A DNA stretch of 64,000 nt from the NCBI GenBank assembly GCA_964490105.1, contig CAZAZU010000001.1, forward strand, positions 370,361 through 434,360. The letters are read 5' to 3'. Made by a program: the position numbers and the translations under genes. Positions 19,664 to 63,987 of this stretch are shown here, one piece after another (position 1 is the first letter of the stretch; every line of letters begins with the position of its first letter). The notes beneath the pieces are model-generated. The model made no database searches. It saw nothing but the letters and a program-made list of their open reading frames with translations, and had not been told where the DNA came from. This DNA is from an uncultured Gammaproteobacteria bacterium (GTDB lineage Bacteria > Patescibacteriota > Microgenomatia > Levybacterales > UBA12049).

Positions 19664-20329
19664 CTAGAGGGCGCCTTTTCCTGAAATCATTGCGCCGGGA
19701 GTTTTTGAGATTATTGATAAATCATAAAGAACAGATCTTTTCTTAACATACTCAGCATCCATTTTTATTCTCTTATCAAAGTTTATTTCCGATCGGCCAG
19801 ATACCTGCCAGTATCCAGTAACGCCGGGACGCACTGAAAGTACAATTTTTACAGATTCGCGAGTTTCCGGATATCTCATTTGTTGATCTCTAAGCTCATC
19901 CGGATAGTAGGCTCGAGGCCCTACAAGACTCATGTCTCCTTTTAGAATATTAAAAAACTGCGGTACTTCATCTAAAGAATGTTTCCTGATGAAATGCCCG
20001 ACGTTAGTAATTCTCGGATCGTCTTTTAATTTATAACTTCCTTTTTTGTAATCTCTGTATAGCTCGGCAAATTTAGGATTTTCGCGCAATAGTTCATGCG
20101 CATTTTCAATCATGGAGCGGAACTTATACATCTTAAAAAGTTTTCCATTTTTTCCAACCCTCTCAGGAGTATCTGCGAGAATTGGTCCCTTTGAATCAAG
20201 CTTAATTGCGATTGCTACGATGATAATTATTGGAGAAAAAATAACTATAAGGATTAACGAAAAAACTATATCAATAAGTCTTTTAAGAATCTCATAAATA
20301 ACACTTTTTCTGACTTCAATAATAGGCAT
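19664..20329 (-). CDS. Monotopic phosphoglycosyl transferase (bacterial sugar transferase, PglC/WbaP C-terminal-domain type); initiating enzyme on undecaprenyl phosphate
   Basis: A single N-terminal re-entrant helix is followed by GPILADTPERVGKNGKLFKMYKFRSM and DELPQFFNILKGDMSLVGPR, which are Bac_transf signatures. Confidence 0.85.
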   Translation of the reverse strand: MPIIEVRKSVIYEILKRLIDIVFSLILIVIFSPIIIIVAIAIKLDSKGPILADTPERVGKNGKLFKMYKFRSMIENAHELLRENPKFAELYRDYKKGSYKLKDDPRITNVGHFIRKHSLDEVPQFFNILKGDMSLVGPRAYYPDELRDQQMRYPETRESVKIVLSVRPGVTGYWQVSGRSEINFDKRIKMDAEYVKKRSVLYDLSIISKTPGAMISGKGAL

Positions 20330-20330
20330 A

Positions 20331-21404
20331 TTAAGTAAGGTGCTCGTGAGGAGTTCCTGCTAGACTCTCAACTAATTTTTTAATTTTCGGAACTGATGAT
20401 TTAGGACAGACCAATACAACATCCTCTGTATTTATTACCAGCATTTCAGAAAGATCGATTCCGACCGTAAGCTGATTCGTGTAGTTAAAAACAAGACTGT
20501 CTCTTGAATCCTCAACCATAACTTTTCCTTTTGTAACGTTCTCGTCAGCTTCTTCACTAAGCGCCTCTTTGAGGGCTTCCCATGCGCCGATATCACTCCA
20601 TCCAATATCAACTGAGATTACAGAAATCTTACTCGTTGTAAATTTCTCAAGTATTGCATCATCAAAACTAATTTTTTCTAAAGTTGGATAGACTTCACTC
20701 AATGTTTTATCAAAGTCCTGAGAGTTAATTATCTTCATTAAATCTTCATACATTTGAGGAGCAAATCTTTCAAATTTTTCAATTAAATATGCAGGTGTTG
20801 TGACAAAATATCCTAAATTCCAGACATAATGTGAGTCTTGGAAAAAATCTTCAGCTTGAGATAATTTAGGACGATATTTGAGTTTTTTAAATTCTAACGA
20901 GCGAAGACCATCTTCTTCCCATAATTCATCTCCACAATAAATCCATCCCACATTCTGATTTGCAAATCTTGGTTTCTGACCAATAAATACGAAGTCTGAT
21001 TTACCATCCTTTATTGATTTTTCAGCCATACGAAGAGCTTTTTGAAAAATCTTTATCTCCTTAACCATGTGATCGCTCCAGATAATAGCCATTGGCTCGT
21101 TAGGAAATTTTTTATTAATAATTGCAGTAGTTAGTCCAATTGCAGGCCCTACATCGCGCATTTCAGGCTCGAATATAAAATTCTCCTGGGGTATATCTGG
21201 AAGCTGATCTATCACTATATCTTTGTACCTTTTTCCGGTTGCAACATAAATATCAGAAGGCGCAAACTCCGGCTGAAGTCTGGCAACAGCTTCTTGAAGC
21301 GTTGATTTGTCACCAATTAATTTTCCGAATTGTTTTGGAGTATTTTTCCTCGACAGAGGCCAAAGTCTTGTTCCCACTCCTCCTGCAAAAATAACTACCT
21401 TCAT
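20331..21404 (-). CDS. manC: Mannose-1-phosphate guanylyltransferase (ManC/GMP-type nucleotidyltransferase)
   Basis: The N-terminal MKVVIFAGGVGTRLWPLSRKNTPKQF motif (GGxGTRLxPLS) is characteristic. At 357 aa it has no cupin/PMI domain. Confidence 0.72.
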   Translation of the reverse strand: MKVVIFAGGVGTRLWPLSRKNTPKQFGKLIGDKSTLQEAVARLQPEFAPSDIYVATGKRYKDIVIDQLPDIPQENFIFEPEMRDVGPAIGLTTAIINKKFPNEPMAIIWSDHMVKEIKIFQKALRMAEKSIKDGKSDFVFIGQKPRFANQNVGWIYCGDELWEEDGLRSLEFKKLKYRPKLSQAEDFFQDSHYVWNLGYFVTTPAYLIEKFERFAPQMYEDLMKIINSQDFDKTLSEVYPTLEKISFDDAILEKFTTSKISVISVDIGWSDIGAWEALKEALSEEADENVTKGKVMVEDSRDSLVFNYTNQLTVGIDLSEMLVINTEDVVLVCPKSSVPKIKKLVESLAGTPHEHLT

Positions 21405-21518: not shown

Positions 21519-21520
21519 AT

Positions 21521-22606
21521 TCATAAATTTGTTTTGTTTTCTAGAAATTTCTCTAGATTTTTTTTGAAATTCTCATACGAGAATCTCTCAGAATTTCCTA
21601 TTATATCAGCCTTATTATATAGTCTTTCATCAAATCTTTCCAATACTTTATTTAATGACTCAGGGCTTTGTTCTAGGAAAAACTCTCCCGTCACTCCTTT
21701 TAATACTATATCCAAAGCTCCTCCGCTTTTAAATGCAATAACTGGTTTTCCAAATAATTGCGCTTCTGCCATTACCAGTCCGAAATCTTCATTTCCTGGA
21801 AAAATTAAAGCTTTGCAATTTTCATAGTAATACCTAAGCTTCTCGTCTGTCAATTCTCCAAGAAATTGTATGTTCTTATTTGCTTGTTTTTTAAGAGAAA
21901 CCATCATGGGTCCTCCTCCCACAATCTTAAGGGGTAATCCATTCTGGTTAAATGCCGCAACTGCTAAGTCCACTCTTTTATAGTTGCTAAATCGAGACAT
22001 TCTGGATACCAAAAGAAAATAATCATTTTTTCTTTTTTTAATTTTTCTTGGCCTTTCTAACATTAAAGGAGGAAAAATTATTTCACTATCCCTATCGTAA
22101 TATTTTTTAATTCTGCTTTTTACTTCAGTTGAAATCGCAATCATATGATCAGGTCTTTTCGAAGCGACGAGATCCCAATTCCTTAAGTACCTTACGGTTC
22201 CCTTGGATAAGAACTTAAAAAGTGGGCTTTTAAAGTATTCATCATATCCACTCCATAGATATCTAGTGGGAGTTAAGCAGTAGCAAATATGCATTGTTCC
22301 CGGGTTTGTAATTATTCCTTTGGCTGCCTCACTTGTTACTGAAATTACTAAATCGTAATCATCAAAGGAAAAATTTTCAAAAGCGACCGGCATAAAAATC
22401 GCCAAAAGCTCATTATATTTTCGGAGCTTTGATGCGCTCTGAAGAAATGAAGTTTTAATTTCAAAGTCATTTGCCCAAGAGCTTCCTTCAAAACTCCGGA
22501 CTGAAGTAAATAAAGGTGCGTCTGGAAATATCCTATGCAGTGCTAAAAGTACCCTTTCTGCCCCACCCCATTTATTTACCCTGTCATAAACCAAGGCTAC
22601 TTTCAT
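21521..22606 (-). CDS. Glycosyltransferase family 4 (GT-B, retaining)
   Basis: The C-terminal Glycos_transf_1 pattern (FPGNEDFGLVMAEAQLFGKPVIAFKSGGALDIV) and EX7E-like motif are present. Confidence 0.8.
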   Translation of the reverse strand: MKVALVYDRVNKWGGAERVLLALHRIFPDAPLFTSVRSFEGSSWANDFEIKTSFLQSASKLRKYNELLAIFMPVAFENFSFDDYDLVISVTSEAAKGIITNPGTMHICYCLTPTRYLWSGYDEYFKSPLFKFLSKGTVRYLRNWDLVASKRPDHMIAISTEVKSRIKKYYDRDSEIIFPPLMLERPRKIKKRKNDYFLLVSRMSRFSNYKRVDLAVAAFNQNGLPLKIVGGGPMMVSLKKQANKNIQFLGELTDEKLRYYYENCKALIFPGNEDFGLVMAEAQLFGKPVIAFKSGGALDIVLKGVTGEFFLEQSPESLNKVLERFDERLYNKADIIGNSERFSYENFKKNLEKFLENKTNL

Positions 22607-23693
22607 ACAATTTATGTGTTTCCTGGGCAGTTTTTTTCCACGAATATTTATTTGCCTGCGCTATACCTTTTTTAACTAACTTTTCTTTTTCCTGGGAACT
22701 TAAACTTAGAACGTATTTCATTTTGGAAAGTATATCATCACTTCTATAATGATCAAAGTAGATAATTGAATCTCCAAATATTTCGTGGTGTACGGGTATA
22801 TCCGATGCCAAGACAAGGCAATTATTTTCTAATGCTTCTAAAGGAGGCAGGCTAAATCCCTCCATAAGACTTGGCCTGACTAGAGCAATGGCTCCTTTAT
22901 AAAGCTCTGACAATTTTTCATCATTTACATTCTCAAGAAAGTGTACGCTTCCTGTCTTAAAATTTTTCTTGACATGATCTTTTAATTTTTTATATAGAAA
23001 ATCGTTGCTTCCTACAAAAACTAAATTAAGCGATGAATCCTCCTTATGCAGTTTCCTAAAAGATTCAAGCAATAATCCTACATTTTTATGCGCAAATACA
23101 TTTCCCACATAAAGAAAATAATTTTTTATACCTTCTTCTTTCCCTGCTGAACTTCTTAAATCATCTGCAGCTTCATAAATAACTTCAATTTTCGATTTGT
23201 CTGTTTTCAAAGTATCCATAATATCTTTTTTTGTAAAGTCAGATACTGCGATAATTTTTTTCGAAATTCTGGCTGCATTTGTGACAACAATTCTGTAGGC
23301 AATCACTTTAAATCCCAAAAGCCATAGGGGAAGAGTAGAAGATGCGCCACTTACATAGTGGTGGAAAATTAAATCATGAATTGTAACTATATATGGACGC
23401 CTGTAAAAAACCGGGATACTAAAATAAGGAAAATGCATTAGATCTAATTTTTCTTTTTTTATAACACGTGGGAAAAATACTTGTTCTCTTATTGAGTGCC
23501 ATCTATATTCTGCATTCACTATTTTCCAATTTTTATTTTTTATTTTTTCTTCTATTTCTTTTCTGTCTTTTTTTTGAACAAACAAAACATATGAATTATT
23601 TTCATCAATTTCAGACAAATTAAAACAAAGATTTCGTATGTATCTTCCTACCCCGGTCTGCCCCCAAAGCCTTACATCAATTCCAATCTTCAT
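22584..23693 (-). CDS. Glycosyltransferase family 4
   Basis: The N-terminal MKIGIDVRLW...GVGRY (Glyco_transf_4) is followed by a C-terminal GT1 domain. Confidence 0.8.
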   Translation of the reverse strand: MKIGIDVRLWGQTGVGRYIRNLCFNLSEIDENNSYVLFVQKKDRKEIEEKIKNKNWKIVNAEYRWHSIREQVFFPRVIKKEKLDLMHFPYFSIPVFYRRPYIVTIHDLIFHHYVSGASSTLPLWLLGFKVIAYRIVVTNAARISKKIIAVSDFTKKDIMDTLKTDKSKIEVIYEAADDLRSSAGKEEGIKNYFLYVGNVFAHKNVGLLLESFRKLHKEDSSLNLVFVGSNDFLYKKLKDHVKKNFKTGSVHFLENVNDEKLSELYKGAIALVRPSLMEGFSLPPLEALENNCLVLASDIPVHHEIFGDSIIYFDHYRSDDILSKMKYVLSLSSQEKEKLVKKGIAQANKYSWKKTAQETHKLYESSLGL

Positions 23694-24562
23694 ACAATGT
23701 TTTTTCTTTTTGCTAAAAATAGTTTTAAGTCAACTCCAAAATACACTAACCAATTTATGAAAAAGGGATAATTTTTAGAATAATGTTTTTTATAGAAAAT
23801 TTTCATTGTTGAATAAAAATATTCTAAGGACTTACTTCTTGTAGTTTTATTTGCACCTGATTTTTCCTGACTATGTTTTTTTATGCCAGAAGAAACTCCT
23901 TTTACATGCATGATTTTTACTTCAGGAACATACATTACTTTAAATCCGGCTTTTTTTACTCTGAAACATAAGTCAATGTCCTCACCATATAGAAAATATT
24001 CTTCATCAAAATACCCGATCTTTTCTAATACTGATTTTCTAATAAACATGAAAGCTCCCACTACTGAATCTACTTCATGGGTTTTTGTCATATCCCTATC
24101 TGTTAAGTGATAGAGCTTGTCATTCTTAAAAAAGAAGTACAGAAATGATGCAAGGAGAGTTGGAAAACCCCTGTGAGAAGCGGCATCAATTGAGCCATCA
24201 GTTTTTTCAACCTTGGACGACGCAATTCCAACTTCTTTATTTTTTTCCATAAAATCATAAATATATGAAAGTGTACCACTCGGAACTTCGGTATCAGGAT
24301 TTAATGTCAAAATATATTGCGATTCTGATTTTCTTAATACTAAATTATGCGCTTTACCAAAACCTAAATTATCTTTATTAATTATGAAATTAAATTCTGG
24401 AAATTTATTTTTTGCTTTTTCTGCACTTCCATCAGATGAAGCATTATCCACAACATAAACTTCAAAATCAATTTCTTGTTTTACTTTTCTTAAACTTTCC
24501 AAACAGCTTATTAGATACTCACCCGCATTATAATTAACAATTGAAATTGTAAGTTTTTTCAT
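23690..24562 (-). CDS. Glycosyltransferase family 2 (GT-A)
   Basis: ISIVNYNAGEYLISCLESL...VVDNASSDGS and a downstream DxD region identify GT2. Confidence 0.8.
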   Translation of the reverse strand: MKKLTISIVNYNAGEYLISCLESLRKVKQEIDFEVYVVDNASSDGSAEKAKNKFPEFNFIINKDNLGFGKAHNLVLRKSESQYILTLNPDTEVPSGTLSYIYDFMEKNKEVGIASSKVEKTDGSIDAASHRGFPTLLASFLYFFFKNDKLYHLTDRDMTKTHEVDSVVGAFMFIRKSVLEKIGYFDEEYFLYGEDIDLCFRVKKAGFKVMYVPEVKIMHVKGVSSGIKKHSQEKSGANKTTRSKSLEYFYSTMKIFYKKHYSKNYPFFINWLVYFGVDLKLFLAKRKNIV

Positions 24563-25728
24563 TAATTTAAGCTTTCATAAACTCTATCAAGTTTTTCAGA
24601 AATATTTTTCCAATCAAAGTTTTTTTCTATAAACTTTCTTCCGTTTCTGGAAATCTTTTCATATAAATAATCATCAGTTAAAAGTAATGAAGTTTTGTTT
24701 GAAAACTCCTCAGGCTTATCGCTAATTATTATCTCCTCATTTTCAGTCGCATTAATCCCCTCATTTCCAAGCTTTGTAGTCACTACTGGAGTACCGCACG
24801 ACATAGATTCTAAAATTTTAAAATTAGTTCCTCCTCCTACCCTAATTGGACTAAGTAAAATATCGGCTTCTTGAAAAATTTTTTCAGTTTCGTTAGAAGC
24901 ATTTTCGTCAAAAACAATTGAACCATCTTTAAGACTTTTAATAGATTCTGGAATCTTCTTTCCAACTACCCAAAGAACTGCATTAGGATTATTTTTTACA
25001 ACCTTTGGCCAAATATTTTTTATAATATAAACTATTGAATCTTTATTTTGAATCCATTTAAAATCTCCGATAAATAAAACTTTTTTATTTTCTTTGTCTT
25101 TAATTATTTTTTTCATTTTAAATTTATCTACATCAACTCCGTTTGGTATTACATCAACTTTTCTTCCCATTAAAGAGGCTTCAATTTCAGAGACAGCGAT
25201 AAGTCTTGTGGCTTTTTTCCAGCATACTCTCTCTGCTCTCTTTAGCTTCATTATATCCAGATATAAAAGCGGGCGCCCGAAAATTAAACTTTTCTTAACA
25301 AATTTTTCATAAACCTCATACTCTATATTATGCTCTGCTAAAACTACAGGTAAATCTGTCTTAGGCAAATTTTGCATTACATAAAAAGTCTCTACGTGAA
25401 TAAGATCAAATTCTTCCTCACTTATCAGTTTTGAAATTATTTTTTTCATTTCTAGACTCTTATGTCCAGTTATAAGGAACGGGTCTAAGGAAAAACCGGT
25501 TTTAAGTATATTTCTTGCACTCCACTGTTTTTTTCGCTCAACTGTATAAACTTTTTCACAAATCTTACCTACTTCATCAATATCTTTTTGAGATTGTGTA
25601 TCTCTTTTCTCGCAAACTAAAGTTATCGAATGTTTTTCGGACAGATTTTTTATTAAATTATAAAGCCGGATTTGACCGCCGGAAAAAAGAGGAAAAGGCA
25701 GATATGACGAAACAATTAATATTTTCAT
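24562..25728 (-). CDS. Glycosyltransferase family 4
   Basis: C-terminal ESMSCGTPVVTTKLGNEGI on a GT-B two-domain layout. Confidence 0.75.
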   Translation of the reverse strand: MKILIVSSYLPFPLFSGGQIRLYNLIKNLSEKHSITLVCEKRDTQSQKDIDEVGKICEKVYTVERKKQWSARNILKTGFSLDPFLITGHKSLEMKKIISKLISEEEFDLIHVETFYVMQNLPKTDLPVVLAEHNIEYEVYEKFVKKSLIFGRPLLYLDIMKLKRAERVCWKKATRLIAVSEIEASLMGRKVDVIPNGVDVDKFKMKKIIKDKENKKVLFIGDFKWIQNKDSIVYIIKNIWPKVVKNNPNAVLWVVGKKIPESIKSLKDGSIVFDENASNETEKIFQEADILLSPIRVGGGTNFKILESMSCGTPVVTTKLGNEGINATENEEIIISDKPEEFSNKTSLLLTDDYLYEKISRNGRKFIEKNFDWKNISEKLDRVYESLN

Positions 25729-27176
25729 GGGCTTTTTCTTAAATCAAAAATTATATATTCAGAAGTTTCTTCTAAAACTACATAGTCCTTTTTAAAATAA
25801 TCGTCTGCAGGTTTTGGATTTGCAATCACTAGATAATCAGCTCCCAAATCTTTAACCATTATATTTAAATCATCCTGATAACTAGACCAGCCTTTTCTTT
25901 TTGTTTGGTATAAAAATGATGTATCACCTTCATAATTTGCTATAACTAAACTATCCTTAGGCGTTAACTTATCAACTGCATTACCCGCTGTAATAATTGC
26001 TCGATTATTTATATTAAAATAATCTCTTACCTGATACCAGCTAAACATAAATGCAAAACCTAAAACTCCTATAAAAACTGTTGGGGCCAGATATTTGTTC
26101 GCCAAATTTTTTCCGAGTGTTAATAAAAAGTCTCCTCCAAGTCCAGCAAAAATACATAGAGTTGGAAGAATAAGAATTTGATAATAATCGTGCTGGATGT
26201 TTCCCCTAGCGATTACAGTTACATATAGAATTGAAGAAACAAGAAATGAATAAAAGAATAAATAACTGGTTTTTGTTTTTGCAACTAAACCAAGCACTAC
26301 CAAGAATACACCCCAATATCCCAAGATTAGTTTTGAAATTCTTTCAGCAAATATCCAATTAAAAAAGGCTCCCTTAAAGCGCATTCCGCCTTCATTAAAA
26401 AGCCAATTAGAACTAGGAATTCCTTCCGGGAATTGTGTCATCCATTGCCTCCAGCCAATCATTGGAAAAAGAGAAGCTGTACCAAACACCCAGAGATAAG
26501 GATTTAGAAACATTTTTAATCCAAACGCTTGATATGCTAAATAAATCATCGGTAGTGTAAAAAAAGCTGCAAAAGGTTTTAGTAAAAATGATACTCCTGT
26601 AAATAAGATTGATAAAGAATAAAATATTATTTTTTTATATTTCATTTTTTCCGACAGCCATAAATCGAAAAAATAAATCCCTGCAAGAATTGTCGCTGCG
26701 GTTGAAGTATCCGGCAAAATAGTTCTACCGTAATAAATACTGAATGGAAGAGCTGCAAAAACAAAAGCTCCAATAAGCCCCGCTCTTTCATTTTGGTGTT
26801 TTTTAAGAATTAAATATATTAAGAGAACTGTTAAAAGAGAAGCAAAAATAGTAATCAATCTTCCCCATTGCTCTAATGATAAAACAGGAAGCAACTTATA
26901 AAATCCTCCTTGGAACAAATTATAAATTGGAAATTCTACAAACCTGTATCCTTCTGGGTTATTTAGGCCAGATGGAACATTGGATAGATCGTGGTATTTA
27001 GGACGAAGTAAATTAAATCCATCTTGGACAAAAATTCTTGAGACTGATGACGTATCTGCCTGCCTCCAGGAATGCCAATCAGCAATCGGGCTATTAAATC
27101 TATAAAGTCTTAAGACAAACCCCAGAATAAGTATACCTACAAGAAGCCCCAGATGAATTCTTTTCATTAAGTTCAT
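25725..27176 (-). CDS. Polytopic membrane protein, GT-C-like (ArnT/PMT_2-like lipid-linked-sugar-dependent glycosyltransferase)
   Basis: More than 10 predicted TM helices. An acidic first-loop motif (ADWHSWRQAD) follows TM1. The size and topology match GT-C enzymes. Confidence 0.5.
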   Translation of the reverse strand: MNLMKRIHLGLLVGILILGFVLRLYRFNSPIADWHSWRQADTSSVSRIFVQDGFNLLRPKYHDLSNVPSGLNNPEGYRFVEFPIYNLFQGGFYKLLPVLSLEQWGRLITIFASLLTVLLIYLILKKHQNERAGLIGAFVFAALPFSIYYGRTILPDTSTAATILAGIYFFDLWLSEKMKYKKIIFYSLSILFTGVSFLLKPFAAFFTLPMIYLAYQAFGLKMFLNPYLWVFGTASLFPMIGWRQWMTQFPEGIPSSNWLFNEGGMRFKGAFFNWIFAERISKLILGYWGVFLVVLGLVAKTKTSYLFFYSFLVSSILYVTVIARGNIQHDYYQILILPTLCIFAGLGGDFLLTLGKNLANKYLAPTVFIGVLGFAFMFSWYQVRDYFNINNRAIITAGNAVDKLTPKDSLVIANYEGDTSFLYQTKRKGWSSYQDDLNIMVKDLGADYLVIANPKPADDYFKKDYVVLEETSEYIIFDLRKSP

Positions 27177-27188
27177 TTTAATTTATCC

Positions 27189-55457: not shown

Positions 55458-55469
55458 TATCTAAAGTGC

Positions 55470-56285
55470 CTATCTTTTTTTAAAAACAATTTCCCAATCA
55501 TAATATCCAAGTATTGGTATGCTAATCCTCCTTATTTGTTTAAGTAAATTATTGTTATTAAAAAAGTTACTATTATTAATAGATAACCTTCTTAATACAA
55601 AGTCCATAACAGGAAACCAAATCTGCTGTTTTTTAGTTTCAATAATTATGAATCTTTTATTGTCAATTAAGCTTAGGAGTTCATCATCTTTTTCATATTC
55701 TCGTAAATGTGTTGAATCTAATACCCACTTCCCCTTCCTCCTGTAAAAATACCATCCATACCATTTTTTGAATACAGTGGTCACATATGCAGTTCCATTT
55801 TTCTTAAGCACCCTATGAATAGTATTTATCATTTTTATATCGTCAACATGCTCAATAACCTGAGTAGAAATAAAGAAGTCAATAGATTTATCCTTAACTG
55901 TCTCAAGATCCTCTGCGCTATCTACACGAGCACTTATTGATTTGTCCAATTTATTAATATTTGCAATTCTTCTTTTGGATAAATCTATAGCAATGATTTT
56001 TTTATTCTTTAAATAATTACCTTTTATCAAAGCGTCAAGAAGTATTCCGTCACCACATCCACAATCAATAATCGAAGAGAATTTAGTTTTTTTTAAATAC
56101 TTGGCTAAAAGCGTCGGAACCTTCATGCCATAGAATTGCACAAACTTTTCTGAATGCCTTTCTAAGTTATTATTTGTGCTATTTAGTTTTTTATTTTTAT
56201 TGTTAATTATTTTATTTTTTGTCATATTTAGCTTGAAAAAAATTATAGACCATTCCGCAAAATCCCGCAAAATACTCAACTGCAC
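55470..56285 (-). CDS. Class I SAM-dependent methyltransferase (annotated start probably too far upstream)
   Basis: Motif I is IIDCGCGDGILLDAL. The first ~52 codons are low-complexity and overlap the GT2 gene by 74 nt, so the internal Met (MKVPTLL, near 56131) is the more likely start. Confidence 0.68.
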   Translation of the reverse strand: MQLSILRDFAEWSIIFFKLNMTKNKIINNKNKKLNSTNNNLERHSEKFVQFYGMKVPTLLAKYLKKTKFSSIIDCGCGDGILLDALIKGNYLKNKKIIAIDLSKRRIANINKLDKSISARVDSAEDLETVKDKSIDFFISTQVIEHVDDIKMINTIHRVLKKNGTAYVTTVFKKWYGWYFYRRKGKWVLDSTHLREYEKDDELLSLIDNKRFIIIETKKQQIWFPVMDFVLRRLSINNSNFFNNNNLLKQIRRISIPILGYYDWEIVFKKR

Positions 56286-57072
56286 GCATCACAACAAAAA
56301 ATATAAAAACTAAAGGATCTTTGGCAAACAATCTCCAATTTCTTAGATAAGATCCTTTAATTGGATTGTAACTTGATAACCATGACTTTGGTCTTTTATT
56401 TAGGTAATTTACCATTTCTCTTCCATACATGAAGCGCTTCTTAAATAGCTTAATGATCGACAAATTGCCTTCGTTATGCATAACTACGCTTTTCGCTCTG
56501 CCAATTCTAAAATTTTTTTCTTTTAATTTTTGAGATAAATCGATATCATCCCCGCCTGCACCCAACGATAAATCAAAACCACCTATGCTATGCCAAACGC
56601 TTTTTTTAAAAAAACGTGGACTCTCTACATTATCATCTCCCCAATAACAGCGCCTTTCTAATTGCTTTGCCTTTGCCCAAATACCAATTCCAAAAGAATC
56701 CTCTCTCAATATCACAGCATCCACACCTTTCTCACACAATTCAACTGCCTCATTGATTAGATTTTTAGACAATTCCATATCGGCATCTAGCCAATAAACA
56801 TATTCTCCCCTTGCCTTCTTCATCCCGTAATTTCTTTTGTGAGGTGCATCGAAAATTCCGCTACTAACCTTGGGAACATATGTATAAAATTCACATTTAT
56901 ACTTATCGGACAATTCTTTTACATTATCTGTAGATTTTCCATCAACTATTATTATTTCTATATTAGGATACGTTTGAAGCCTGATATGCTTTAAGCAACT
57001 ATCAAGAAAGGCAGCTGAATTTCTGGTCGGGATTACAATGGATACTAATTTATAATTATTGTTCTTTTTCAT
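56212..57072 (-). CDS. Glycosyltransferase family 2
   Basis: VSIVIPTRNSAAFLDSCLKHI...VDGKSTD and WLDADMEL (DxD) identify GT2. Confidence 0.8.
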   Translation of the reverse strand: MKKNNNYKLVSIVIPTRNSAAFLDSCLKHIRLQTYPNIEIIIVDGKSTDNVKELSDKYKCEFYTYVPKVSSGIFDAPHKRNYGMKKARGEYVYWLDADMELSKNLINEAVELCEKGVDAVILREDSFGIGIWAKAKQLERRCYWGDDNVESPRFFKKSVWHSIGGFDLSLGAGGDDIDLSQKLKEKNFRIGRAKSVVMHNEGNLSIIKLFKKRFMYGREMVNYLNKRPKSWLSSYNPIKGSYLRNWRLFAKDPLVFIFFVVMRAVEYFAGFCGMVYNFFQAKYDKK

Positions 57073-57147: not shown

Positions 57148-58314
57148 CTATGAAAGAATTCGAATTATTTTATTAATATCTTTCTTTGATAATTCGGGAT
57201 TATTTCCAATATAAAATCCTTGATCATGCGCAATGCCCGCATTTTTATTATATACACGACTTTTAATATATTTACTAAAGAATGGCTGTCTAGTTAAATC
57301 ACCGCCCACTATTGGTCTAGTTTCAATTACATTTTCACACTTTCTTAGAAGATTATCCCTTATCCTACCTGATTTACATATAATAGGAATTGCGAAGTTT
57401 GAAACAAAATCTATATGATCGTACTTTAGCTGATAATAATTTTTATTATCATAAATAGATTCAGCGATTGTTAAGAAATTGCTGTTCCGTCTATTATTAA
57501 TTTCGTCTATATATTTTATTCCAATATTACCCACAAATCCATTTATTTCTGTTGGCCTCAAGTTATATCCTAAATCATAAAATGTATATCTTGAGTAAAA
57601 AGTAGAATTAACCTTAAATTTTTTTCTAATTTGGTCCTGATTAGCAAAATTAAGATTTCTGTCCCATCCATGCGCTCTTACCATACATAACATATCCATC
57701 AACTCTTCATCGTCAGTACAAACTACCCCGCCTTCAATAGTTGAAAGATGATGCCCAACATAAAAAGAGCAAGTACTTGCTAATCCAAAATTACCTAACT
57801 TTGTCCCCTTATATATTGTCCCTAAAGACTCACAATTATCTTCAATAAGAATTATTTTATTTTTTTTGCAAATACTTTGTATATTATCCAAATCACTGCA
57901 AAATCCCAAAGCATTCGTAACAAATAAAGCTTTAAGCTTTTTTTTAGCAATTACAGCATTAAGTTTTTGACTTGAAATATTGAGGGTATCAATTTCTATA
58001 TCAATTGGGACCGGGTTTAAACCTAACTGAATCAAGGGCATAACATTCGTACTCCAAGATAATGCTGAAAAACCTACATTATCTCCCTTCTTTAGCCTCC
58101 GTAAATTAAGTAAAGATTGAATTAGCGCCAAATTTGCAGAACTTCCGCTATTAACAAACGCACAATATTTTCTTTCTTGATACTTCGCAAATTTTTTTTC
58201 GAATTTCTCACACTCTGAACTGAAGCTTAACTTTTTGGACTTCTTTATAAATCTTGCTAGTTCTCTTTTGACACTCTCCTCTTTGTAGAATGTCGACTTA
58301 ATTAACGGAATCAT
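57148..58314 (-). CDS. DegT/DnrJ/EryC1-family PLP/PMP enzyme, ColD-like (GDP-4-keto-6-deoxymannose 3-dehydratase-type; His-His replaces the Schiff-base Lys)
   Basis: NSGSSANLALI, KKGD...SALSWSTN, LIEDNCESLGT, CSFYVGHHLSTIEGGVVCTDDEEL, VRAHGWDRNL and TRPIVGGDL track ColD. The position normally occupied by the PLP lysine (SFHxxKxxxxGEGG) reads SFYVGHH, the hallmark of PMP-dependent 3-dehydratases such as ColD and E1. Confidence 0.65.
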   Translation of the reverse strand: MIPLIKSTFYKEESVKRELARFIKKSKKLSFSSECEKFEKKFAKYQERKYCAFVNSGSSANLALIQSLLNLRRLKKGDNVGFSALSWSTNVMPLIQLGLNPVPIDIEIDTLNISSQKLNAVIAKKKLKALFVTNALGFCSDLDNIQSICKKNKIILIEDNCESLGTIYKGTKLGNFGLASTCSFYVGHHLSTIEGGVVCTDDEELMDMLCMVRAHGWDRNLNFANQDQIRKKFKVNSTFYSRYTFYDLGYNLRPTEINGFVGNIGIKYIDEINNRRNSNFLTIAESIYDNKNYYQLKYDHIDFVSNFAIPIICKSGRIRDNLLRKCENVIETRPIVGGDLTRQPFFSKYIKSRVYNKNAGIAHDQGFYIGNNPELSKKDINKIIRILS

Positions 58315-58465: not shown

Positions 58466-59578
58466 TTAACTTAATGCAAATTCTAAAAACCTATTCGTAG
58501 TATTAGACCACGTGTGTTTCTTTCTTTCACTTATAGCTCCTTTTTGTAATTTATTGTATAAATTTTCATCCTGCAATATTTTTTGAATATTTTCTGAAAG
58601 ATTTTCTGGATTATTTTCCTGGCAAATTTTTCCATTAACATTGTCCTTAACGATGTCTTTTAGACCCGGGACGTTATAAACTACTGCGGGAGTACCTCTC
58701 GCTCCTGCTTCGTGTACGGTTAAGCCCCACCCCTCCTTAACTGATGGAGCAATTAAAATATGTGCTCTAGTTAATAACTCTTCTTTCTTTTCCTCAGTAA
58801 CATAGTCAAAAAACCGAATGTTTTCTTTAAGATCCGAATCCTTCACAAGCCTATGAAGCTCAACTACAAACTCAGCCTCTCCCCGGCCTATTATCCAAAG
58901 CATGATATCTGGAATGTTTTTCTTAAGGATCTCAACTGATTTAATCGCGTCAACTACTCCTTTTGTTTTAGAAAGACGGGAAACGAAAATTAATGTTTTT
59001 TCCTTTTCTTTTTTAGGAAGACTACTAACCATTCTTGAATTTGAACCCATGGGAATTACTTTTACTTGTGATTTAGTAAAACCGTTCTTTTCAATTTCTT
59101 CTTTTGAAGATTCTGAAATAGTAACAACTGGTATTTTTTTATAAAAGCTAGGATAAATTTTTTCAATTATTTTTCCAAATATGTTAAATGGAAAACCTAC
59201 CGCGATATTCCAAAGATCTCCTGCAACTTCACAAATTAATGCAACTTTTTTTTCCTTAACATAAAACGGTGTAAAAAAGGGAATTCCGTGCACCTCGTCA
59301 ATTACCAAATCAACTTTCCCCTGAAAATCTCTCTTATACAGTTTGTAAGCAGCAAAATGCACTGATCTAAATAATCTTCTTGCATCAGGATCTCCTGATC
59401 TAATTATTTTAACGCCTTCAATTATTTCTTCTTCTTTAGCGCCTTTAAACTTCGCACTAATCTGCGTTACAACGTGTCCTTTTTTTACAAATCCAGATGC
59501 TAATTCCTGAGTCAGAATCTCAGCTCCCCCGGATGAAGGATTTTTAATATCTCTCCAATTTAAAATTAATATTTTCAT
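58466..59578 (-). CDS. Glycosyltransferase family 4
   Basis: EGWGLTVHEAGARGTPAVVYNVPGLKDIV is the GT4 C-terminal signature. Confidence 0.8.
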   Translation of the reverse strand: MKILILNWRDIKNPSSGGAEILTQELASGFVKKGHVVTQISAKFKGAKEEEIIEGVKIIRSGDPDARRLFRSVHFAAYKLYKRDFQGKVDLVIDEVHGIPFFTPFYVKEKKVALICEVAGDLWNIAVGFPFNIFGKIIEKIYPSFYKKIPVVTISESSKEEIEKNGFTKSQVKVIPMGSNSRMVSSLPKKEKEKTLIFVSRLSKTKGVVDAIKSVEILKKNIPDIMLWIIGRGEAEFVVELHRLVKDSDLKENIRFFDYVTEEKKEELLTRAHILIAPSVKEGWGLTVHEAGARGTPAVVYNVPGLKDIVKDNVNGKICQENNPENLSENIQKILQDENLYNKLQKGAISERKKHTWSNTTNRFLEFALS

Positions 59579-60909
59579 AAATCTCTATAAAGAATTACAG
59601 CAAGAAAACTTAGTGAAAAAATTACAGTTAAAAATAAATAGTTAAGTGAAAATATTTGTTTCTTAAATTTAATATTTGGAAAAAATAAAGGTAAAAGAGT
59701 AATACTAGATAAAACTAAGAATCCTCTAAAAGCTAGGAATGAAAACCCGAACATATTTGTCCATGTGAGTTCTAAAAGCGAAAGACCAAGGAATAAAATA
59801 AATAAAAATGTAAGTAAAATATTTTTATTAAAGTACTCTTTTATAAAAATTGCTAAAGAAATTGCCAGAAATGGATAAAAAGGATATCTATACCAACCGT
59901 GTCCCGGTTCATTTGGAATTGCAAAAATAAATACTGCTAAGTAGGCAAAAATCCCTAAAATCGGCAGGAAATTTTTCTTAAAGTCTTTTATTAAAAGAAG
60001 GAAGAATGATATCCAGCCAAAATATATCCAGCCGTCAATCATATGTCTGTCCACCATAAATGGTTCCTTAAAAAGCGCGTAAACACTGTTAAAAGTCAGG
60101 TCATATCTTTGGAGTTGAAGTTTCCAAAGACTTACAAATAAATTCCAGTCATAATAATATCCATAAGCTAAGTACCCCAGAAAAAATGCCAATACTGTTC
60201 CAGAAACTAACAAACTCTCTTTATATTTCTTAGAATAAATTAAAATGGAAATTACAGCCAAGCTTGCAGCGATCCAGGGTATTTTAGAAACAAGTAAAAG
60301 ACCACACAGAACAGAAACTATAGCGATAAATATCTTATTCTTTGTTTTTATATATTTTATCGTAAACAGAAGAGCTATAAGGAATCCTGGAATGAAAAAA
60401 TTCTCGTTCTGAACAATTCTAGAACCTATTGCAACAGTTGGAATAATCGCATAAATAAAGCTAGCAAGAAGAGCTGTTTCTTTATCATAAATTTCTTTTA
60501 CGAGAAGAAATAAAACACCTATTGAGATGACACCAAGAATAATCGCTAGCGGACGGATCCTTCCAACATCAATGTCATACATGTTATCTGCGCCATTTAA
60601 AAGTGCGAATGAGCCTGCTACGACTCCAAAAAATGGCGGGTGCTCTAAATATGGTCTGACAATCCAAAAAGCAGCACCTTTATAAATCAGGTGCTCTCTT
60701 TCAGAATTTAAATACTGCGGATGCGAAGACCAGGATTTTGGTGCTCCTTCCTGAATCAGATTTATTCCAAGCCATGTCCAAGCAAACTCATCCATGGTAG
60801 CTCCAAATCTGGGTGTTATTGCATAATTATGAACTCGTAAAACTAGTCCAATCAGTAAGATTGAAGCAATAATAATTAATGTTTTTCTTTTTAAAATTTC
60901 TTTAACCAT
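59575..60909 (-). CDS. Polytopic membrane GT-C glycosyltransferase, PMT_2/ArnT-like (polyprenyl-P-sugar dependent)
   Basis: 444 aa with roughly 11 TM helices. The first-loop DE motif (GATMDEFAWTW) follows TM1. It is coupled (1-nt overlap) to the upstream DPM1-like GT2 gene. Confidence 0.55.
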   Translation of the reverse strand: MVKEILKRKTLIIIASILLIGLVLRVHNYAITPRFGATMDEFAWTWLGINLIQEGAPKSWSSHPQYLNSEREHLIYKGAAFWIVRPYLEHPPFFGVVAGSFALLNGADNMYDIDVGRIRPLAIILGVISIGVLFLLVKEIYDKETALLASFIYAIIPTVAIGSRIVQNENFFIPGFLIALLFTIKYIKTKNKIFIAIVSVLCGLLLVSKIPWIAASLAVISILIYSKKYKESLLVSGTVLAFFLGYLAYGYYYDWNLFVSLWKLQLQRYDLTFNSVYALFKEPFMVDRHMIDGWIYFGWISFFLLLIKDFKKNFLPILGIFAYLAVFIFAIPNEPGHGWYRYPFYPFLAISLAIFIKEYFNKNILLTFLFILFLGLSLLELTWTNMFGFSFLAFRGFLVLSSITLLPLFFPNIKFKKQIFSLNYLFLTVIFSLSFLAVILYRDL

Positions 60910-61646
60910 TATTTATAATAATTTAGGATTCTTAATCTATAAAAAACTGCTAACGTGTCAACTAGTGTCAGGAATGAAATTTTCCAGAAGTTAGTACTAG
61001 TTACACTTCCCTGTTTAAAAGTTAATTTTATAGGAGCCTCTATAATTTTTGTATAACCTAACATTCTTGCTACAGCAAGAACCTCAACATCAAACGCAAA
61101 CGCTTTAACAATTATCTTAGGAAATACTTCTTTAGCTGTTTTTTTTCTAAAGAATTTAAGTCCAACCTGAGTATCCCTAACACTAAGCCTGAAAAGTACT
61201 TTAATTAGACTCCTATATCCCCATGACAATATTTTTCTGCTTAACGGGTACTTAATAATCGAGTCCGGATGAAGCTTGCTTCCTATAACTATATCTGCTT
61301 TATTCCATTCCATCATGTTTAACATGAGCGATATTTCTGAAGGACTCAAGTCCATACCGGCATCTATAAACCCGATTACATCTCCCTTTGCCTTTTCCAC
61401 CCCAAGTTTTATTGCAAAACCTTTACCTTTATTTAATTCGTAGCCGAGAGGAATAAGTTTATTGTTTTTTATTTGTTTTAGTTTTTCAAATGTCTGATCC
61501 AGGAATCCATCAACAACTACTATTATTTCATACTCAGATGTTATAGAACTTAACGCCAAATCAAGATTTTTTACATCTTCTATTATTGTTTTCTCTTGTT
61601 TATAGGCAGGAACTATTAATGAGATAAAATTAGCCGACATAAGCAT
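60909..61646 (-). CDS. GT2 polyprenyl-phosphate sugar synthase, DPM1-like (no TM)
   Basis: LIVPAYKQEKTI, IIVVVDGFLDQT, IGFIDAGMDLSPSE and GSKLHPDSII...RDTQVGLKFF are DPM1-like signatures. Confidence 0.72.
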   Translation of the reverse strand: MLMSANFISLIVPAYKQEKTIIEDVKNLDLALSSITSEYEIIVVVDGFLDQTFEKLKQIKNNKLIPLGYELNKGKGFAIKLGVEKAKGDVIGFIDAGMDLSPSEISLMLNMMEWNKADIVIGSKLHPDSIIKYPLSRKILSWGYRSLIKVLFRLSVRDTQVGLKFFRKKTAKEVFPKIIVKAFAFDVEVLAVARMLGYTKIIEAPIKLTFKQGSVTSTNFWKISFLTLVDTLAVFYRLRILNYYK

Positions 61647-62926
61647 TATCTATAGCTGAGCTTGAATTGATTTATTTTCAAATAATACACGACGAGAGAA
61701 ATCATTAGCAACATAGATGAAAAAATTGAAACATAGATAACCTGACTGAAAGTTGAGTGGAAAATCCACATTAAAATTATCTGAAATAACGCAAATAATA
61801 GAGTGATTAAAAATACTTTTGTTTTTTTAATTGAGAGAAAAAAGCTGATGAAAACATTATTAACACTATAGATTGTAAGAAAAATTCCGAAAAGTCCAAG
61901 GTATGGGGCAATCACTAAATAATCCCCTCCTCCTAAAAATAGCGAAACGGTGAAATTAGGAAAAAGGAAATAAAAACCAGTCATGAAAATTGACGGCAGA
62001 AGAACAAGAGCGAGGGCTATATAAAAAAGATTATTATAGTTTTCCTTGTTTGTATGACGCTTAACGATTAATGGAAACATGGCGATTGGGATTGGACCAG
62101 TAAAATAGAAAATTACTTTTCCGATTAAAGATAGCCCTCCATAAAAACCAGCATCCTGAGAACTGAAAAAATGCTTAACTAATAAAACATCAGATGATAT
62201 AAATGATGATAATGAAAATATCGCAATCGAAGTTGGAATTGCATATAAAACAATATCAGACCTATCTATATTTATTTTTTTATTTGCTCCAACAATTACT
62301 TTCCTTAAAACAATAAAACTTATCGAAAATCCTATTATCGAAGAAATAATAACAGCGCCTAATGCTCCAAAAACCTTAAATCCTAAAATTATAAGAAGTA
62401 CACCAAATGCAAGCTTTCCTATTCCGCCCAACAAATAAAGGAAACCTAAGAGCTTGAACCTCAACATACTTTGAACAAATGCCATGTTTAAAGTAGCAAG
62501 ATAAAAAATCGCTATTGAGAATCCCACCATAACTACAAGTCCCAGCTCGTCAATTTTGAGAAACGACATAATTAGACTAGATACCAAAATGATGCCAACA
62601 TTTAGAACAATACTGAAAACTAGGATGTATTTAAATGCTTTAATGTAAAATGCTCCGGCTCTTTCGTTTTCATTCCTAGAAAAAAATTGTGCTGCATATC
62701 TGACAATAATTGACGACAAAGAACTAGCAGGAATTGTTACGAGAGTTATTAAAGACATCAGACTAGCAAATGTTCCATAATCCGAATAGCTTAAACTTCT
62801 TGCAAAATAAACATTTAATATGAATGCGAGAAAACTTGATGCAGTAGTCCCGATAAGTACAAAAAAACTTCCTGAAATCAAATCGTGCTTTATACTACTT
62901 AAAATAATCTTTTTAATCTTATCCAT
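61646..62926 (-). CDS. Wzx-type oligosaccharide flippase (MOP superfamily polysaccharide biosynthesis protein)
   Basis: 426 aa, roughly 12 TM helices, with an N-terminal Polysacc_synt-like pattern (LISGSFFVLIGTTASSFLAFILNVYFARSLS). Confidence 0.72.
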   Translation of the reverse strand: MDKIKKIILSSIKHDLISGSFFVLIGTTASSFLAFILNVYFARSLSYSDYGTFASLMSLITLVTIPASSLSSIIVRYAAQFFSRNENERAGAFYIKAFKYILVFSIVLNVGIILVSSLIMSFLKIDELGLVVMVGFSIAIFYLATLNMAFVQSMLRFKLLGFLYLLGGIGKLAFGVLLIILGFKVFGALGAVIISSIIGFSISFIVLRKVIVGANKKINIDRSDIVLYAIPTSIAIFSLSSFISSDVLLVKHFFSSQDAGFYGGLSLIGKVIFYFTGPIPIAMFPLIVKRHTNKENYNNLFYIALALVLLPSIFMTGFYFLFPNFTVSLFLGGGDYLVIAPYLGLFGIFLTIYSVNNVFISFFLSIKKTKVFLITLLFALFQIILMWIFHSTFSQVIYVSIFSSMLLMISLVVYYLKINQFKLSYR

Positions 62927-63987
62927 TAACTGAATTCAGAAATCTTCTTGTATACTTCATAAGTTTCCATAGCAGTTTTTTCCCAATTGAATTTTTTGGC
63001 ATTTTCAAATCCAAGTTTTATAAACTTTCCTCTTAATTCATTGTCTTCAAATATATTCTCAATTCCCTCTCTGATTGAGTCAACACTTAACGGATCAACA
63101 TAATAAGCCGCATTCCCCGCCACTTCCGGGAGTGAGCCCGACTTAGAAGTAATAACCGGGCAGCCTGACTGCATAGCTTCGAGAATTGGCAATCCAAAAC
63201 CCTCGTAAAGAGACGGCATACAAAGAACTACGGCTGAATTATAAATTCCCACAAGGTCTTCATTTTCTACAAATCCCAGCGAAATAATATTTTTATTTTT
63301 AGCAGCTAACTCTTGAGAGTTTTTAAGGTCCTTGTTCCAAGGACTATTCTTATCATAGTTTTTATTCTTAAAAGCTTGACCTACAATTACGAGCGGGTAG
63401 TTTGTAAGATTTATTGCCTCCATGAGTCTAGGTAAATTTTTATTTGATGTAACGTCACCTACATAAAGCGCAAATTTCTGAGGAAGATTGAATTTTTTTA
63501 TCACCTGGTTCTTTTTTTCTACAGAAACTGGTTTATAATGTTTTCCTGCTGCCAGATAAACTACCCGGATCTTAGAATCTTCGTAATTTGCGATTTTAAC
63601 AATATCTTTCTTCGAGGATTCCGAGTCAGTAATAATAAAATCTGAATTTTTAAGAATTTTTTTTTGAATTTGCCACTTCACTCCGCCTTTTAGTCCTGAC
63701 GGAAATTCATTTTTAAAAACAATTGGTGTGAAGTCGTGAACCGTAATTACCGTTTTAACAGTCTTTTTTAATGGAAGTGTTAAAAAAAATGGTTCAAAAT
63801 ATGGATAATGAATTAGATCGATTTTCCCATCCAACTTTTCACCCCTTTTTGTAAATAAAAACTCACCTTCACCGTATTTCTCTAGAAGAGCCTCTTTTAG
63901 GTTATTTAGATAAAATCCTGTTCCCCTTACTCTATGCTGAAGAAAATGACCGGACGTAATAGGGGATATATCAATTGCTACCTTCAT
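62926..63987 (-). CDS. Glycosyltransferase family 4
   Basis: [38 protein letters not shown] is the GT4 C-terminal signature. Confidence 0.82.

Follow-up and report, generated by a model that had tools for sequence, protein, structure and literature searches.

What kind of surface molecule is built by the glycan genes that fill the greater part of a 64-kb stretch of Levybacteria DNA (contig CAZAZU010000001.1 of assembly GCA_964490105.1; this whole stretch of 64,000 nucleotides is referred to as the window), and do those genes form one locus? A sequence-only reading of the window had described positions 19664-63987 as a co-directional supercluster in which a lipid-PP-oligosaccharide route of the PglC/Wzx/Wzy_C type is combined with polyprenyl-phosphate-sugar synthases and membrane glycosyltransferases of the GT-C fold, and had supposed one long decorated glycan as its product. 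The gene content bears out this combination of machineries and the supercluster is real; the boundaries and the Wzy-type polymerization step were not upheld, and the single long glycan was a supposition placed upon a locus that consists of two conserved blocks around a mosaic middle. The explanation that we consider probable, though only just, is that of a lineage-typical cell-envelope glycan assembly locus of Levybacteria, in which one PglC-primed, Wzx-flipped, lipid-linked glycan would be ligated by the product of gene g26 and elaborated outside the membrane by GT-C enzymes. A single lipid-linked line, ligated and then elaborated outside, fits best because the machinery comprises one primer, one Wzx, about 14 cytoplasmic glycosyltransferases (GTs), three or four polyprenyl-phosphate-sugar synthases, about ten GT-Cs, and one enzyme in which a ligase is fused to a GT-C.

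Extent and composition of the locus

The listing of open reading frames (ORFs) gives 38 of at least 100 aa, which tile the region 19664-63987 on the minus strand throughout; with a 75-aa membrane ORF that is conserved in relatives the number becomes 39 genes, not the 40 or so previously counted (Table 1). Coding density is 98.8%, and 29 of the 38 junctions are overlaps or gaps of at most 15 nt, as the tight spacing noted earlier had implied. Pfam gathering scores in glycan-synthesis families are reached by 33 of the 39 genes, a count that leaves out the weak PMT_2 match of g35 (38929), and four further genes were placed by fold or profile. The Pfam assignments comprise one Bac_transf, one ManC, six members of GT family 2 (GT2), five short-chain dehydrogenases/reductases (SDRs), one DegT protein, one carbamoyltransferase, three methyltransferases, two hexapeptide acetyltransferases, one Wzx, and two clear PMT_2 proteins plus the weak one; in GT family 4 (GT4), nine complete members and one stand-alone N-terminal domain were found where about 11 had been claimed. 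The earlier counts of Wzx, ManC, SDRs, carbamoyltransferase, methyltransferases and acetyltransferases agree with these, as do those of the six GT2, two of which resemble polyprenyl-phosphate-sugar synthases (g31 and, with a weaker match, g54), and of the six GT-C-like proteins, with g25, g35 and g53 recognized by Pfam, g41 by its fold, g32 by profile and g26 through its C-terminal half.

The common strand, which had been taken as a mark of the cluster, does not serve as one. All 56 ORFs of at least 100 aa in the window tile it almost without gaps on the minus strand, including those at 1-19578, which encode FtsA, an FtsQ-like protein, MurG, FtsW, MraY, MurA, three Mur ligases, a penicillin-binding protein, an FtsL-like ORF, RsmH, MraZ, glycyl-tRNA synthetase (GlyRS), RecO and a DUF4012 protein, and the GC skew of the plus strand is negative in every 2-kb bin. 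Since the part containing GlyRS and the division and cell wall (dcw) genes is also entirely on the minus strand and the skew is negative throughout, strand cannot delimit the cluster; the layout looks like a genome-scale strand bias, probably linked to replication, and not like an operon feature. Intergenic gaps of 75-151 nt divide the region into at least six units. A promoter scan was at chance (68 found, 71.5 expected) and terminator-like sites barely exceeded shuffled sequence (18 against 11.4 +/- 3.8), and neither was used for calling operons; no tRNA genes and no Rfam families were found in the window.

These features bear on the possibility that several independent envelope-glycosylation systems are merely co-located, a Wzx-dependent heteroglycan lying beside separate three-component systems of polyprenyl-phosphate-sugar synthase and GT-C that would act on peptidoglycan, lipoglycan or proteins, all held together by the genome-wide order on one strand. 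The lack of operon evidence from strand and the division into units are what such an arrangement would give, sub-modules move independently among genomes, and there are three or four polyprenyl-phosphate-sugar synthases (g31, g54, x04 and possibly g50; x denotes genes past the window), each adjoining a GT-C. We nevertheless consider it somewhat unlikely, as both flanks and the overall distance between the anchors are kept in relatives, only one priming transferase and one Wzx are present, and the nucleotide-sugar genes of the middle have only the transferases of the locus itself.

The locus extends past the region first delimited on both sides. Its probable start (3' end) is the DUF4012 gene g18, at 17611, which immediately follows the priming transferase, as it also does in 43 of the 51 related species with enough flanking sequence. 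The DUF4012 family is enriched in bacteria of the Candidate Phyla Radiation (CPR) and in Gram-positives, and in the capsular polysaccharide/exopolysaccharide (CPS/EPS) locus of Bifidobacterium longum a DUF4012 gene is situated between the priming GT and wzz (PMC5412050). On the other side, exact matches to the same strain in two other samples (L001 and L086) provided 13 kb of sequence past the window end, and glycan genes continue for at least this distance. In window-equivalent coordinates the locus reaches at least from 17.6 to about 76.8 kb, so that at least 59 kb with about 50 genes, or about 7.5% of the 784,859-bp contig, are given over to it immediately upstream of RecO-GlyRS and the dcw operon of the cell wall; both the continuation and the large share of a small genome had been foreseen. 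Over the approximately 77 kb of window and extension, g19 is the sole initiating (phosphoglycosyl) transferase found.

The g26 fusion and a GT-C family without a domain model

The g26 product is bimodular. Its N-terminal module (residues ~1-560) is of the WaaL/Wzy_C-like lipid-PP-glycan ligase type, with a beta-rich outer domain at 299-434, and its C-terminal module (~565-1075) is GT-C_A-like, with an invariant D602-D603 following its first transmembrane segment (TM). The Wzy_C domain previously ascribed to this protein does not reach the threshold in this copy (16.7 against 31.7 bits) but is detected in 32 of 38 orthologues and is backed by the fold, for which the ligase WaaL is the closest structural match; the N-terminal half also gave a weak IctB match, and the g26 profile searched against PDB by sequence alone gave none. 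The best fold matches also include Pmt4, Pmt2, STT3 and AglB, and AftD, AftA and AftB were matched as well. With a Wzy_C domain and a WaaL-like GT-C_B fold, g26 falls within the O-antigen ligase/O-oligosaccharyltransferase family (Wzy_C, CAZy GT121). Invariant Arg and His residues are present in the alignment of orthologues, which does not imply that they correspond to the catalytic Arg/His of WaaL. In an exhaustive HMMER search, the parts ~13-560 and ~544-1060 were also encountered as separate proteins (~450-560 and ~480-550 aa), and full fusions of ~1000-1070 aa account for about 35 among the best 150 clusters; across Levybacteria the fusion is uniform in length, with 55-86% identity. From its predicted model, g26 is interpreted as the union of a WaaL-type ligase with a GT-C_A enzyme, the allocation of the two folds to the two halves being our reading.

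If the locus were a classical Wzx/Wzy capsule or exopolysaccharide cluster, g26 (or g40) would be the Wzy polymerase and the polymer would be released or loosely attached. The PglC-type primer, the Wzx and the Wzy_C-domain protein are all present, and the bifidobacterial CPS/EPS locus with its DUF4012 gene (PMC5412050) points the same way. Yet no Wzz or other polysaccharide co-polymerase (PCP), tyrosine kinase or LCP protein was found in the 77 kb, the GTs go far beyond the need of one repeat unit, and about ten GT-Cs would be left unexplained. Among the genes of such loci, those for Wzy polymerases tend to vary most, whereas g26 is highly conserved across species. A capsule of this type is therefore regarded as improbable; as to the Wzy-type step of the sequence-only reading, the one Wzy_C-type protein of the locus is structurally closest to WaaL and is fused to a GT-C.

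The Wzy_C family also includes the O-oligosaccharyltransferases PglL, PilO and WsaB, and this membership, together with the Pmt4, Pmt2, STT3 and AglB matches, raises the alternative of a general protein O-glycosylation system. In that case lipid-PP-oligosaccharide would be moved en bloc by the Wzy_C/PglL-like half of g26 to Ser/Thr residues of surface proteins such as S-layer proteins or pilins, GT-Cs of the PMT_2 type would O-mannosylate or extend protein glycans, and the variable middle would encode a strain-specific outer glycan on a conserved core. Such a division into a conserved core and a species-specific outer glycan, with documented protein targets, is described for the Bacteroidetes/Tannerella O-glycosylation locus (PMC6120980). 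Moreover, g31 resembles PgfS of the Streptococcus mutans protein-glycosylation machinery, while x04 is similar to AglJ and x02 to Agl23, both from archaeal N-glycosylation of S-layers. Set against this, no acceptor protein, sequon or S-layer/pilin gene was found in the locus, about 24 GTs exceed what known protein O-glycans involve, DUF4012 is tied to CPS/EPS loci, and the ligase half best matches WaaL, which is a lipid-acceptor ligase, although the fold is shared and this match does not discriminate. Protein O-glycosylation is accordingly held to be doubtful, while deserving real weight.

The second membrane enzyme of interest, g41, matches nothing in Pfam, NCBIfam or PDB by sequence, so that structure prediction was needed. 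Its AlphaFold model has a predicted local distance difference test (pLDDT) score of 86.8 and a C-terminal outer beta domain, and in Foldseek the PDB matches up to E <= 0.03 (the top 20) belong without exception to GT-C enzymes, including STT3 (1.8e-7), AftD (query TM-score, TMq, 0.50), PglB, ArnT and ALG12. An invariant GGDD (43-46) follows TM1 in the g41 family, and both the polytopic fold and the acidic motif in the first outer loop that characterize GT-C_A are present. The alignment of g32 and its positional homologues with the g41 family by hhalign (99.8%, E 6.6e-29, 606 columns) joins the two, and on this modelled basis g41 and g32 are taken to define a GT-C family that lacks a Pfam or NCBIfam model. 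Only about 80 homologues of g41 were found, the best with 67% identity and none on the contigs of the nearest relatives.

Conserved blocks, a mosaic middle and the supply of sugars

The loci of relatives were anchored on GlyRS and represented by one genome per GTDB species; individual sequences are given as L numbers. The best matches, 81-92% identical, identify the source as an uncultured member of the Levybacteria (Microgenomates, CPR), and matches with informative record names are filed under Levybacteria, Levyibacteriota or Patescibacteria. In 43 of 51 related species, the DUF4012-PglC-GT4 genes are kept beside RecO-GlyRS-dcw. The right block (17.6-34.75 kb, g18-g31) is collinear at 55-94% identity in L083/L084, where g21-g24 reach 67-87% and g27-g29 66-86%, and at 42-77% in L085. 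Identity drops sharply at the junction of g31 and g32, from 93% to 34%: g32 is 34-35% identical to the proteins at the same position in L083, L084 and L092, the position being kept and the sequence diverged. Upstream of this position L085 has methyltransferases, a cytidylyltransferase and a GT2, and L083/L084 have a 1102-1116-aa GT-C_AftD/DUF5667 protein. The idea that everything beyond g32 is strain-specific was overturned, as collinearity resumes in the same two relatives at g52-g56 and holds through the 13-kb extension, with identities of 55-85%. For this left block (58.5 kb onward) the comparison was anchored on a PMT_2 protein beyond the window, and g52-g56 are collinear in L088/L089 with 64-85% identity. 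The two anchors are 42.6 kb apart here, and 43.5 kb and 56.2 kb apart in the two relatives.

The middle (g32-g51, 34.8-58.3 kb) is a mosaic. In the Levybacterium L090, g40-g52 are collinear (51-88% identity, with 67-86% for g42-g44 and 66-77% for g46-g50), and divergence follows; in L091, a single-cell genome of 2013, pieces corresponding to g40-g45, g53, g33 and g35 occur in changed order. No orthologues of g33-g39 were found in the visible flanks of the nearest relatives, apart from g33, which has matches in L085 and L091. The GC content of third codon positions (GC3) is 0.257-0.267 in all blocks, the lower total GC reflecting protein composition; a foreign origin of the middle receives no support from composition, and exchange therefore appears to take place among compositionally similar genomes. 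The locus is thus made of two conserved blocks flanking a recombining, strain-variable middle, and the question of whether it is conserved or variable, which had been left to comparative genomics, is answered one way for the flanks and the other for the middle.

Two further observations concern the relatives themselves. In the single-cell genome (contig AQYS01000014.1, 19341-22250) the glycan genes abut MraZ and GlyRS on the opposite strand, and the RecO-DUF4012-PglC junction is rearranged. Many of the close relatives are filed as 'uncultured Gammaproteobacteria bacterium', yet GlyRS and synteny identify them as Levybacteria, and the names look like placeholders or errors.

The sugars for which the locus is equipped can be partly read from its middle. 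The g45 product matches Arabidopsis GME (2c59) over its full length (342.8 bits, E 1.9e-101, residues 13-327 against 33-344) and, on sequence grounds, is assigned as a GDP-mannose 3,5-epimerase that would make GDP-L-galactose or GDP-L-gulose, in keeping with the L-sugar step that had been anticipated. Similarly, the ColD-like dehydratase recognized earlier finds support in the scores of g51 (ColD 2gms, 197.5 bits; E1 3bcx, 160 bits; RfbH model, 235 bits; aminotransferases, at most 86 bits) and in the alignment of its 'GHHLSTIEGG' with 'SHHIATMEGG' of ColD, in which the catalytic His-His is kept and the active-site His stands in place of Lys; a ColD-type 3-dehydratase is the predicted function.

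Among the genes of the right block, g31 scores 162.6 bits with the ArnC model over residues 8-291 of 316, and 155 bits with PgfS, matching over its full length; these scores lie below the equivalog cutoffs and the assignment is one of family level. Two C-terminal TMs are predicted at 228-290. For g30, a pseudogene remnant was ruled out, as the same short ORF (174-177 aa) is kept in three relatives. It lies directly upstream of g29, which is a complete GT4, and may represent a GT-B subunit of a split or accessory kind. The 75-aa ORF between g31 and g30 is a candidate small flippase or accessory subunit.

The extension, seen in L001/L086, encodes a YfhO/PTPS-like GT-C, a 611-aa protein, an MptA_B-family GT-C, a DUF5667 protein, a true GalE (380 bits), an opposite-strand AglJ/DPM1-like GT2 (x04, AglJ 121 bits), a PMT_2/Agl23-like GT-C (x02), membrane proteins of 502 and 458 aa (the latter with a weak PMT_2 match), and another GT2. 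The AglJ/DPM1-like GT2 (3056-3739, minus strand, in L001) and the 611-aa membrane protein (6471-8306, plus strand) are absent from the two nearest relatives and are small strain-specific insertions within the conserved left block.

Two genes on the dcw side of the window were also noted. An NTP_transferase gene (69 bits) at 5209-5949 on the minus strand lies inside the dcw cluster, between MurA and MraY, and may encode a GlmU-like or other sugar-1-phosphate nucleotidylyltransferase without an acetyltransferase domain. A 147-aa ORF with no Pfam match (15208-15651, minus strand), just downstream of GlyRS, between it and g14, shows 86% identity in L007 and 37-39% in L003/L004, where its neighbours show about 90%, which marks a local divergence hotspot.

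Table 1. Features of the glycan locus within the window, with the basis of assignment and the identity found in relatives
Gene	Product	Position	Strand	Basis or remark	Identity in relatives
g18	DUF4012 membrane protein	17611-19578	-	Pfam DUF4012 82 bits; one N-terminal TM; probable 3' end of locus	
g19	Small PglC-like polyprenyl-phosphate phosphoglycosyl transferase	19664-20329	-	Bac_transf 212.5 bits (cutoff 27), full length	77-94%
g20	ManC-type mannose-1-phosphate guanylyltransferase (GDP-mannose)	20331-21404	-	NTP_transferase and ManC beta-helix; TIGR01479 228 bits across guanylyltransferase part	
g21	GT4	21521-22606	-	Pfam; cytoplasmic	
g22	GT4	22584-23693	-	Pfam; cytoplasmic	
g23	GT2	23690-24562	-	Pfam; cytoplasmic	
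g24	GT4	24562-25728	-	Pfam; cytoplasmic	
g25	GT-C (PMT_2/GT39-like) membrane glycosyltransferase	25725-27176	-	PMT_2 41.9 bits; ~9 TMs	49-78%
g26	Bimodular enzyme, 1075 aa	27189-30416	-	WaaL/Wzy_C-like N module and GT-C_A-like C module	
g27	GT2	30388-31266	-	Pfam	
g28	Hexapeptide acetyltransferase	31266-31820	-	Pfam	
g29	GT4	31813-32946	-	Pfam	
g30	Stand-alone GT4 N-terminal (acceptor-binding) domain, 177 aa	33056-33589	-	Glyco_transf_4 28.9 bits	58-85% (L083, L084, L085)
	Conserved membrane ORF, 75 aa	33590-33817	-	No Pfam match	80% L083, 63% L084, 41% L085
g31	Polyprenyl-phosphate-sugar synthase (ArnC/GtrB/PgfS-like GT2)	33824-34750	-	Last gene of right block	93% L083, 86% L084, 60% L092
g32	GT-C of g32/g41 family	34779-36815	-	First middle gene; no Pfam match	
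g33	GT2	36822-37913	-	Pfam	66-71% (L085 and L091)
g34	GalE-like SDR	37892-38923	-	PDB 4zrm 169 bits	
g35	Probable GT-C	38929-40590	-	Weak PMT_2	
g36	NodU/TobZ-type O-carbamoyltransferase	40591-42378	-	Pfam, NCBIfam	64% L092, in another gene neighbourhood
g37	GT4	42375-43571	-	Pfam	
g38	SDR	43571-44599	-	Pfam	
g39	Methyltransferase	44615-45349	-	Pfam	
g40	Membrane protein, 358 aa	45398-46474	-	No Pfam or NCBIfam match; travels with g41	51% L090, 41% L091, adjoining g41 homologue
g41	GT-C glycosyltransferase, 755 aa	46461-48728	-	AlphaFold model and Foldseek	
g42	Hexapeptide acetyltransferase	48765-49370	-	Pfam	
g43	GT4	49380-50627	-	Pfam	
g44	Short SDR	50620-51432	-	Pfam	
g45	Predicted GDP-mannose 3,5-epimerase	51449-52438	-	PDB 2c59	
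g46	FkbM methyltransferase	52522-53388	-	Pfam/NCBIfam	
g47	GT4	53393-54559	-	Pfam/NCBIfam	
g48	RmlD-like 4-keto reductase	54546-55457	-	171 bits, under equivalog cutoff	
g49	Methyltransferase	55470-56285	-	Pfam/NCBIfam; start called in L001 equals 56225	
g50	GT2	56212-57072	-	Pfam/NCBIfam	
g51	Predicted ColD/E1-type pyridoxamine phosphate-dependent NDP-4-keto-6-deoxyhexose 3-dehydratase	57148-58314	-	PDB ColD 2gms	
g52	GT4	58466-59578	-	Pfam	
g53	GT-C PMT_2	59575-60909	-	Pfam	
g54	DPM1/PpgS-like GT2	60909-61646	-	PpgS 44.7 bits; weaker match than g31	
g55	Wzx flippase	61646-62926	-	Polysacc_synt_3 38.9 bits (cutoff 23), Polysacc_synt 33.5 bits (cutoff 28.2), ~12 TMs	
g56	GT4	62926-63987	-	Pfam	

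Proposed assembly of the glycan and its relation to known systems

The gene families, folds, synteny and mosaic pattern described above suggest an order of steps for a single product. The lone PglC-like transferase g19 would prime polyprenyl phosphate at the cytoplasmic face, and GT4 and GT2 enzymes would lengthen the primer with sugars derived from GDP-mannose, which ManC would provide. The 3,5-epimerase may lead to L-galactose or L-gulose, and the ColD-type dehydratase with SDR reductases to a 3,6-dideoxy or 6-deoxy hexose; methyl, acetyl and carbamoyl groups would be put on the glycan, and Wzx (g55) would flip the lipid-PP-oligosaccharide. If the two halves of g26 are coupled, its GT-C_A half, using a polyprenyl-phosphate-hexose made by g31, probably installs or extends an acceptor sugar to which the WaaL-like half would then ligate the lipid-PP-glycan, a 'prime-and-ligate' scheme like that of the bimodular ligase WadA. 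Three or four polyprenyl-phosphate-sugar synthases would supply about ten further GT-Cs that branch or extend the glycan outside the membrane, so that the conserved flanks would specify its invariant parts and the variable middle a strain-specific outer structure. A wall- or membrane-anchored heteroglycan is favoured over a protein glycan as the product because of the position beside dcw, the association with DUF4012, the number of GTs, and a logic resembling that of lipomannan/lipoarabinomannan (LM/LAM) assembly.

Several points weigh against this scheme. The model of g26 is of moderate quality (pLDDT 74), and the hhalign comparison of its C-terminal half with the g41 family is not significant (2.6%). 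An LCP-type wall ligase, Wzz/PCP, an ABC transporter and a GtrA flippase were not found in the visible 77 kb; Wzz/PCP and kinases gave no Pfam match in the roughly 50 proteins of the window and the 13-kb extension and could be encoded elsewhere, and no match to GtrA or SMR-like (ArnEF-type) small flippases was obtained among the locus proteins. Gmd was not found among the SDRs of the locus (best TIGR01472 scores 41 bits for x05 and 30 bits for g34, cutoff 415) or in PDB searches with g34, g38 and g44, so that the deoxy-sugar route is incomplete as seen. Finally, the 14 or so cytoplasmic GTs and ten or so GT-Cs could equally serve several products.

Several characterized systems share parts of this arrangement. 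The Gram-positive wall loci, namely EPA of Enterococcus faecalis, cwps of Lactococcus and the streptococcal RGP, have a conserved and a variable part, a rhamnan backbone with RmlABCD, an ABC transporter and LCP ligases. The Levybacteria locus is like them in placing conserved genes beside an exchanged, strain-variable region and in its cytoplasmic GTs, Wzx-type flipping, polyprenyl-phosphate-sugar synthases and outer GT-Cs; it differs in that no RmlABCD rhamnan/ABC/LCP set was found, its variable part is enclosed by two conserved blocks, the GT-Cs number about ten, and a ligase is fused to a GT-C. Mycobacteria and corynebacteria assemble LM/LAM and arabinogalactan with the GT4 enzymes PimA/B, with Ppm1, MptA/MptB, AftA-D and Emb. 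The common logic consists of GDP-mannose-dependent GT4 steps inside and many polyprenyl-phosphate-sugar GT-Cs outside, with an MptA_B match and fold matches to AftD, AftA and AftB; initiation here is nevertheless of the PglC type with Wzx and not on phosphatidylinositol, no genes for decaprenyl-phosphate-arabinose (DPA) were seen, and identity to the mycobacterial enzymes is 8-13%. In three-component lipid-phosphate-sugar systems (GtrA/B/C, ArnC/ArnT, CsbB/YfhO, PgfS/PgfM), as here, a GT2 synthase is linked to a GT-C: g31 and the DPM1-like g54 and x04 adjoin the GT-Cs g32, g53 and x02/x09. Unlike those systems, no GtrA-family flippase was detected, and several pairs lie within one very large locus.

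The GDP-L-colitose pathway of Escherichia coli O55/O111 (ManC, Gmd, ColD, ColC) shares ManC and a ColD-type enzyme with catalytic His with the present locus, in which Gmd is missing and the Fcl/ColC-like candidate is the putative GDP-mannose 3,5-epimerase. WadA, the bimodular O-antigen ligase of Brucella/Mesorhizobium, joins a GT121 module to a GT25 module, the second GT being thought to make the ligation acceptor (PMC10920833). Its likeness to g26 lies in the fusion of a WaaL-type ligase domain with a second glycosyltransferase; g26 adds an integral-membrane, lipid-phosphate-sugar-dependent GT-C_A in place of the soluble GT25, involves no lipid A-core, and is found as a fusion lineage-wide in Levybacteria. 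The Tannerella locus likewise gathers Wzx, GTs, methyltransferases and sugar-modifying enzymes in one place, but such loci are much smaller, with few GT-Cs and without the ligase-GT-C fusion. The locus, which is without rhamnan/ABC genes, phosphatidylinositol-based initiation, a GtrA flippase, Wzz or lipid A, belongs to no single known system; what is unusual is its size relative to the genome, the density of GT-Cs, the lineage-wide ligase-GT-C fusion, and the GT-C family without a Pfam or NCBIfam model. The literature searched, whose coverage was incomplete, contained no account of such loci from Levybacteria or CPR and none of a Wzy_C and GT-C fusion, which is absence of evidence only; the 'elaborate cell surface' of CPR is mentioned in general terms (PMC8080830, PMC6744442).

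A broader proposal, unlikely enough to be offered as a speculation, is that Levybacteria, and perhaps Microgenomates generally, might carry out most of the assembly of their main surface glycan outside the membrane, with a hitherto unrecognized WaaL-GT-C_A 'prime-and-ligate' enzyme and about ten GT-Cs, including the family without a model. This would be a mycobacterium-like logic in a genome of less than 1 Mb, and in these episymbionts the recombining middle of the locus would be a serotype-like determinant that governs host attachment or phage recognition. The WaaL-GT-C fusion, the GT-C family without a model and the putative bacterial GDP-mannose 3,5-epimerase are biochemical targets that can be tested heterologously without cultivation. 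Attachment to other cells is the presumed way of life of CPR/Patescibacteria, whose surface chemistry is almost undescribed. Since this locus takes about 7% of the contig, stays beside the operon for division and wall synthesis in 43 of 51 related species, and varies among strains at its centre, it is the obvious candidate for encoding the molecule of host or phage recognition in this lineage.

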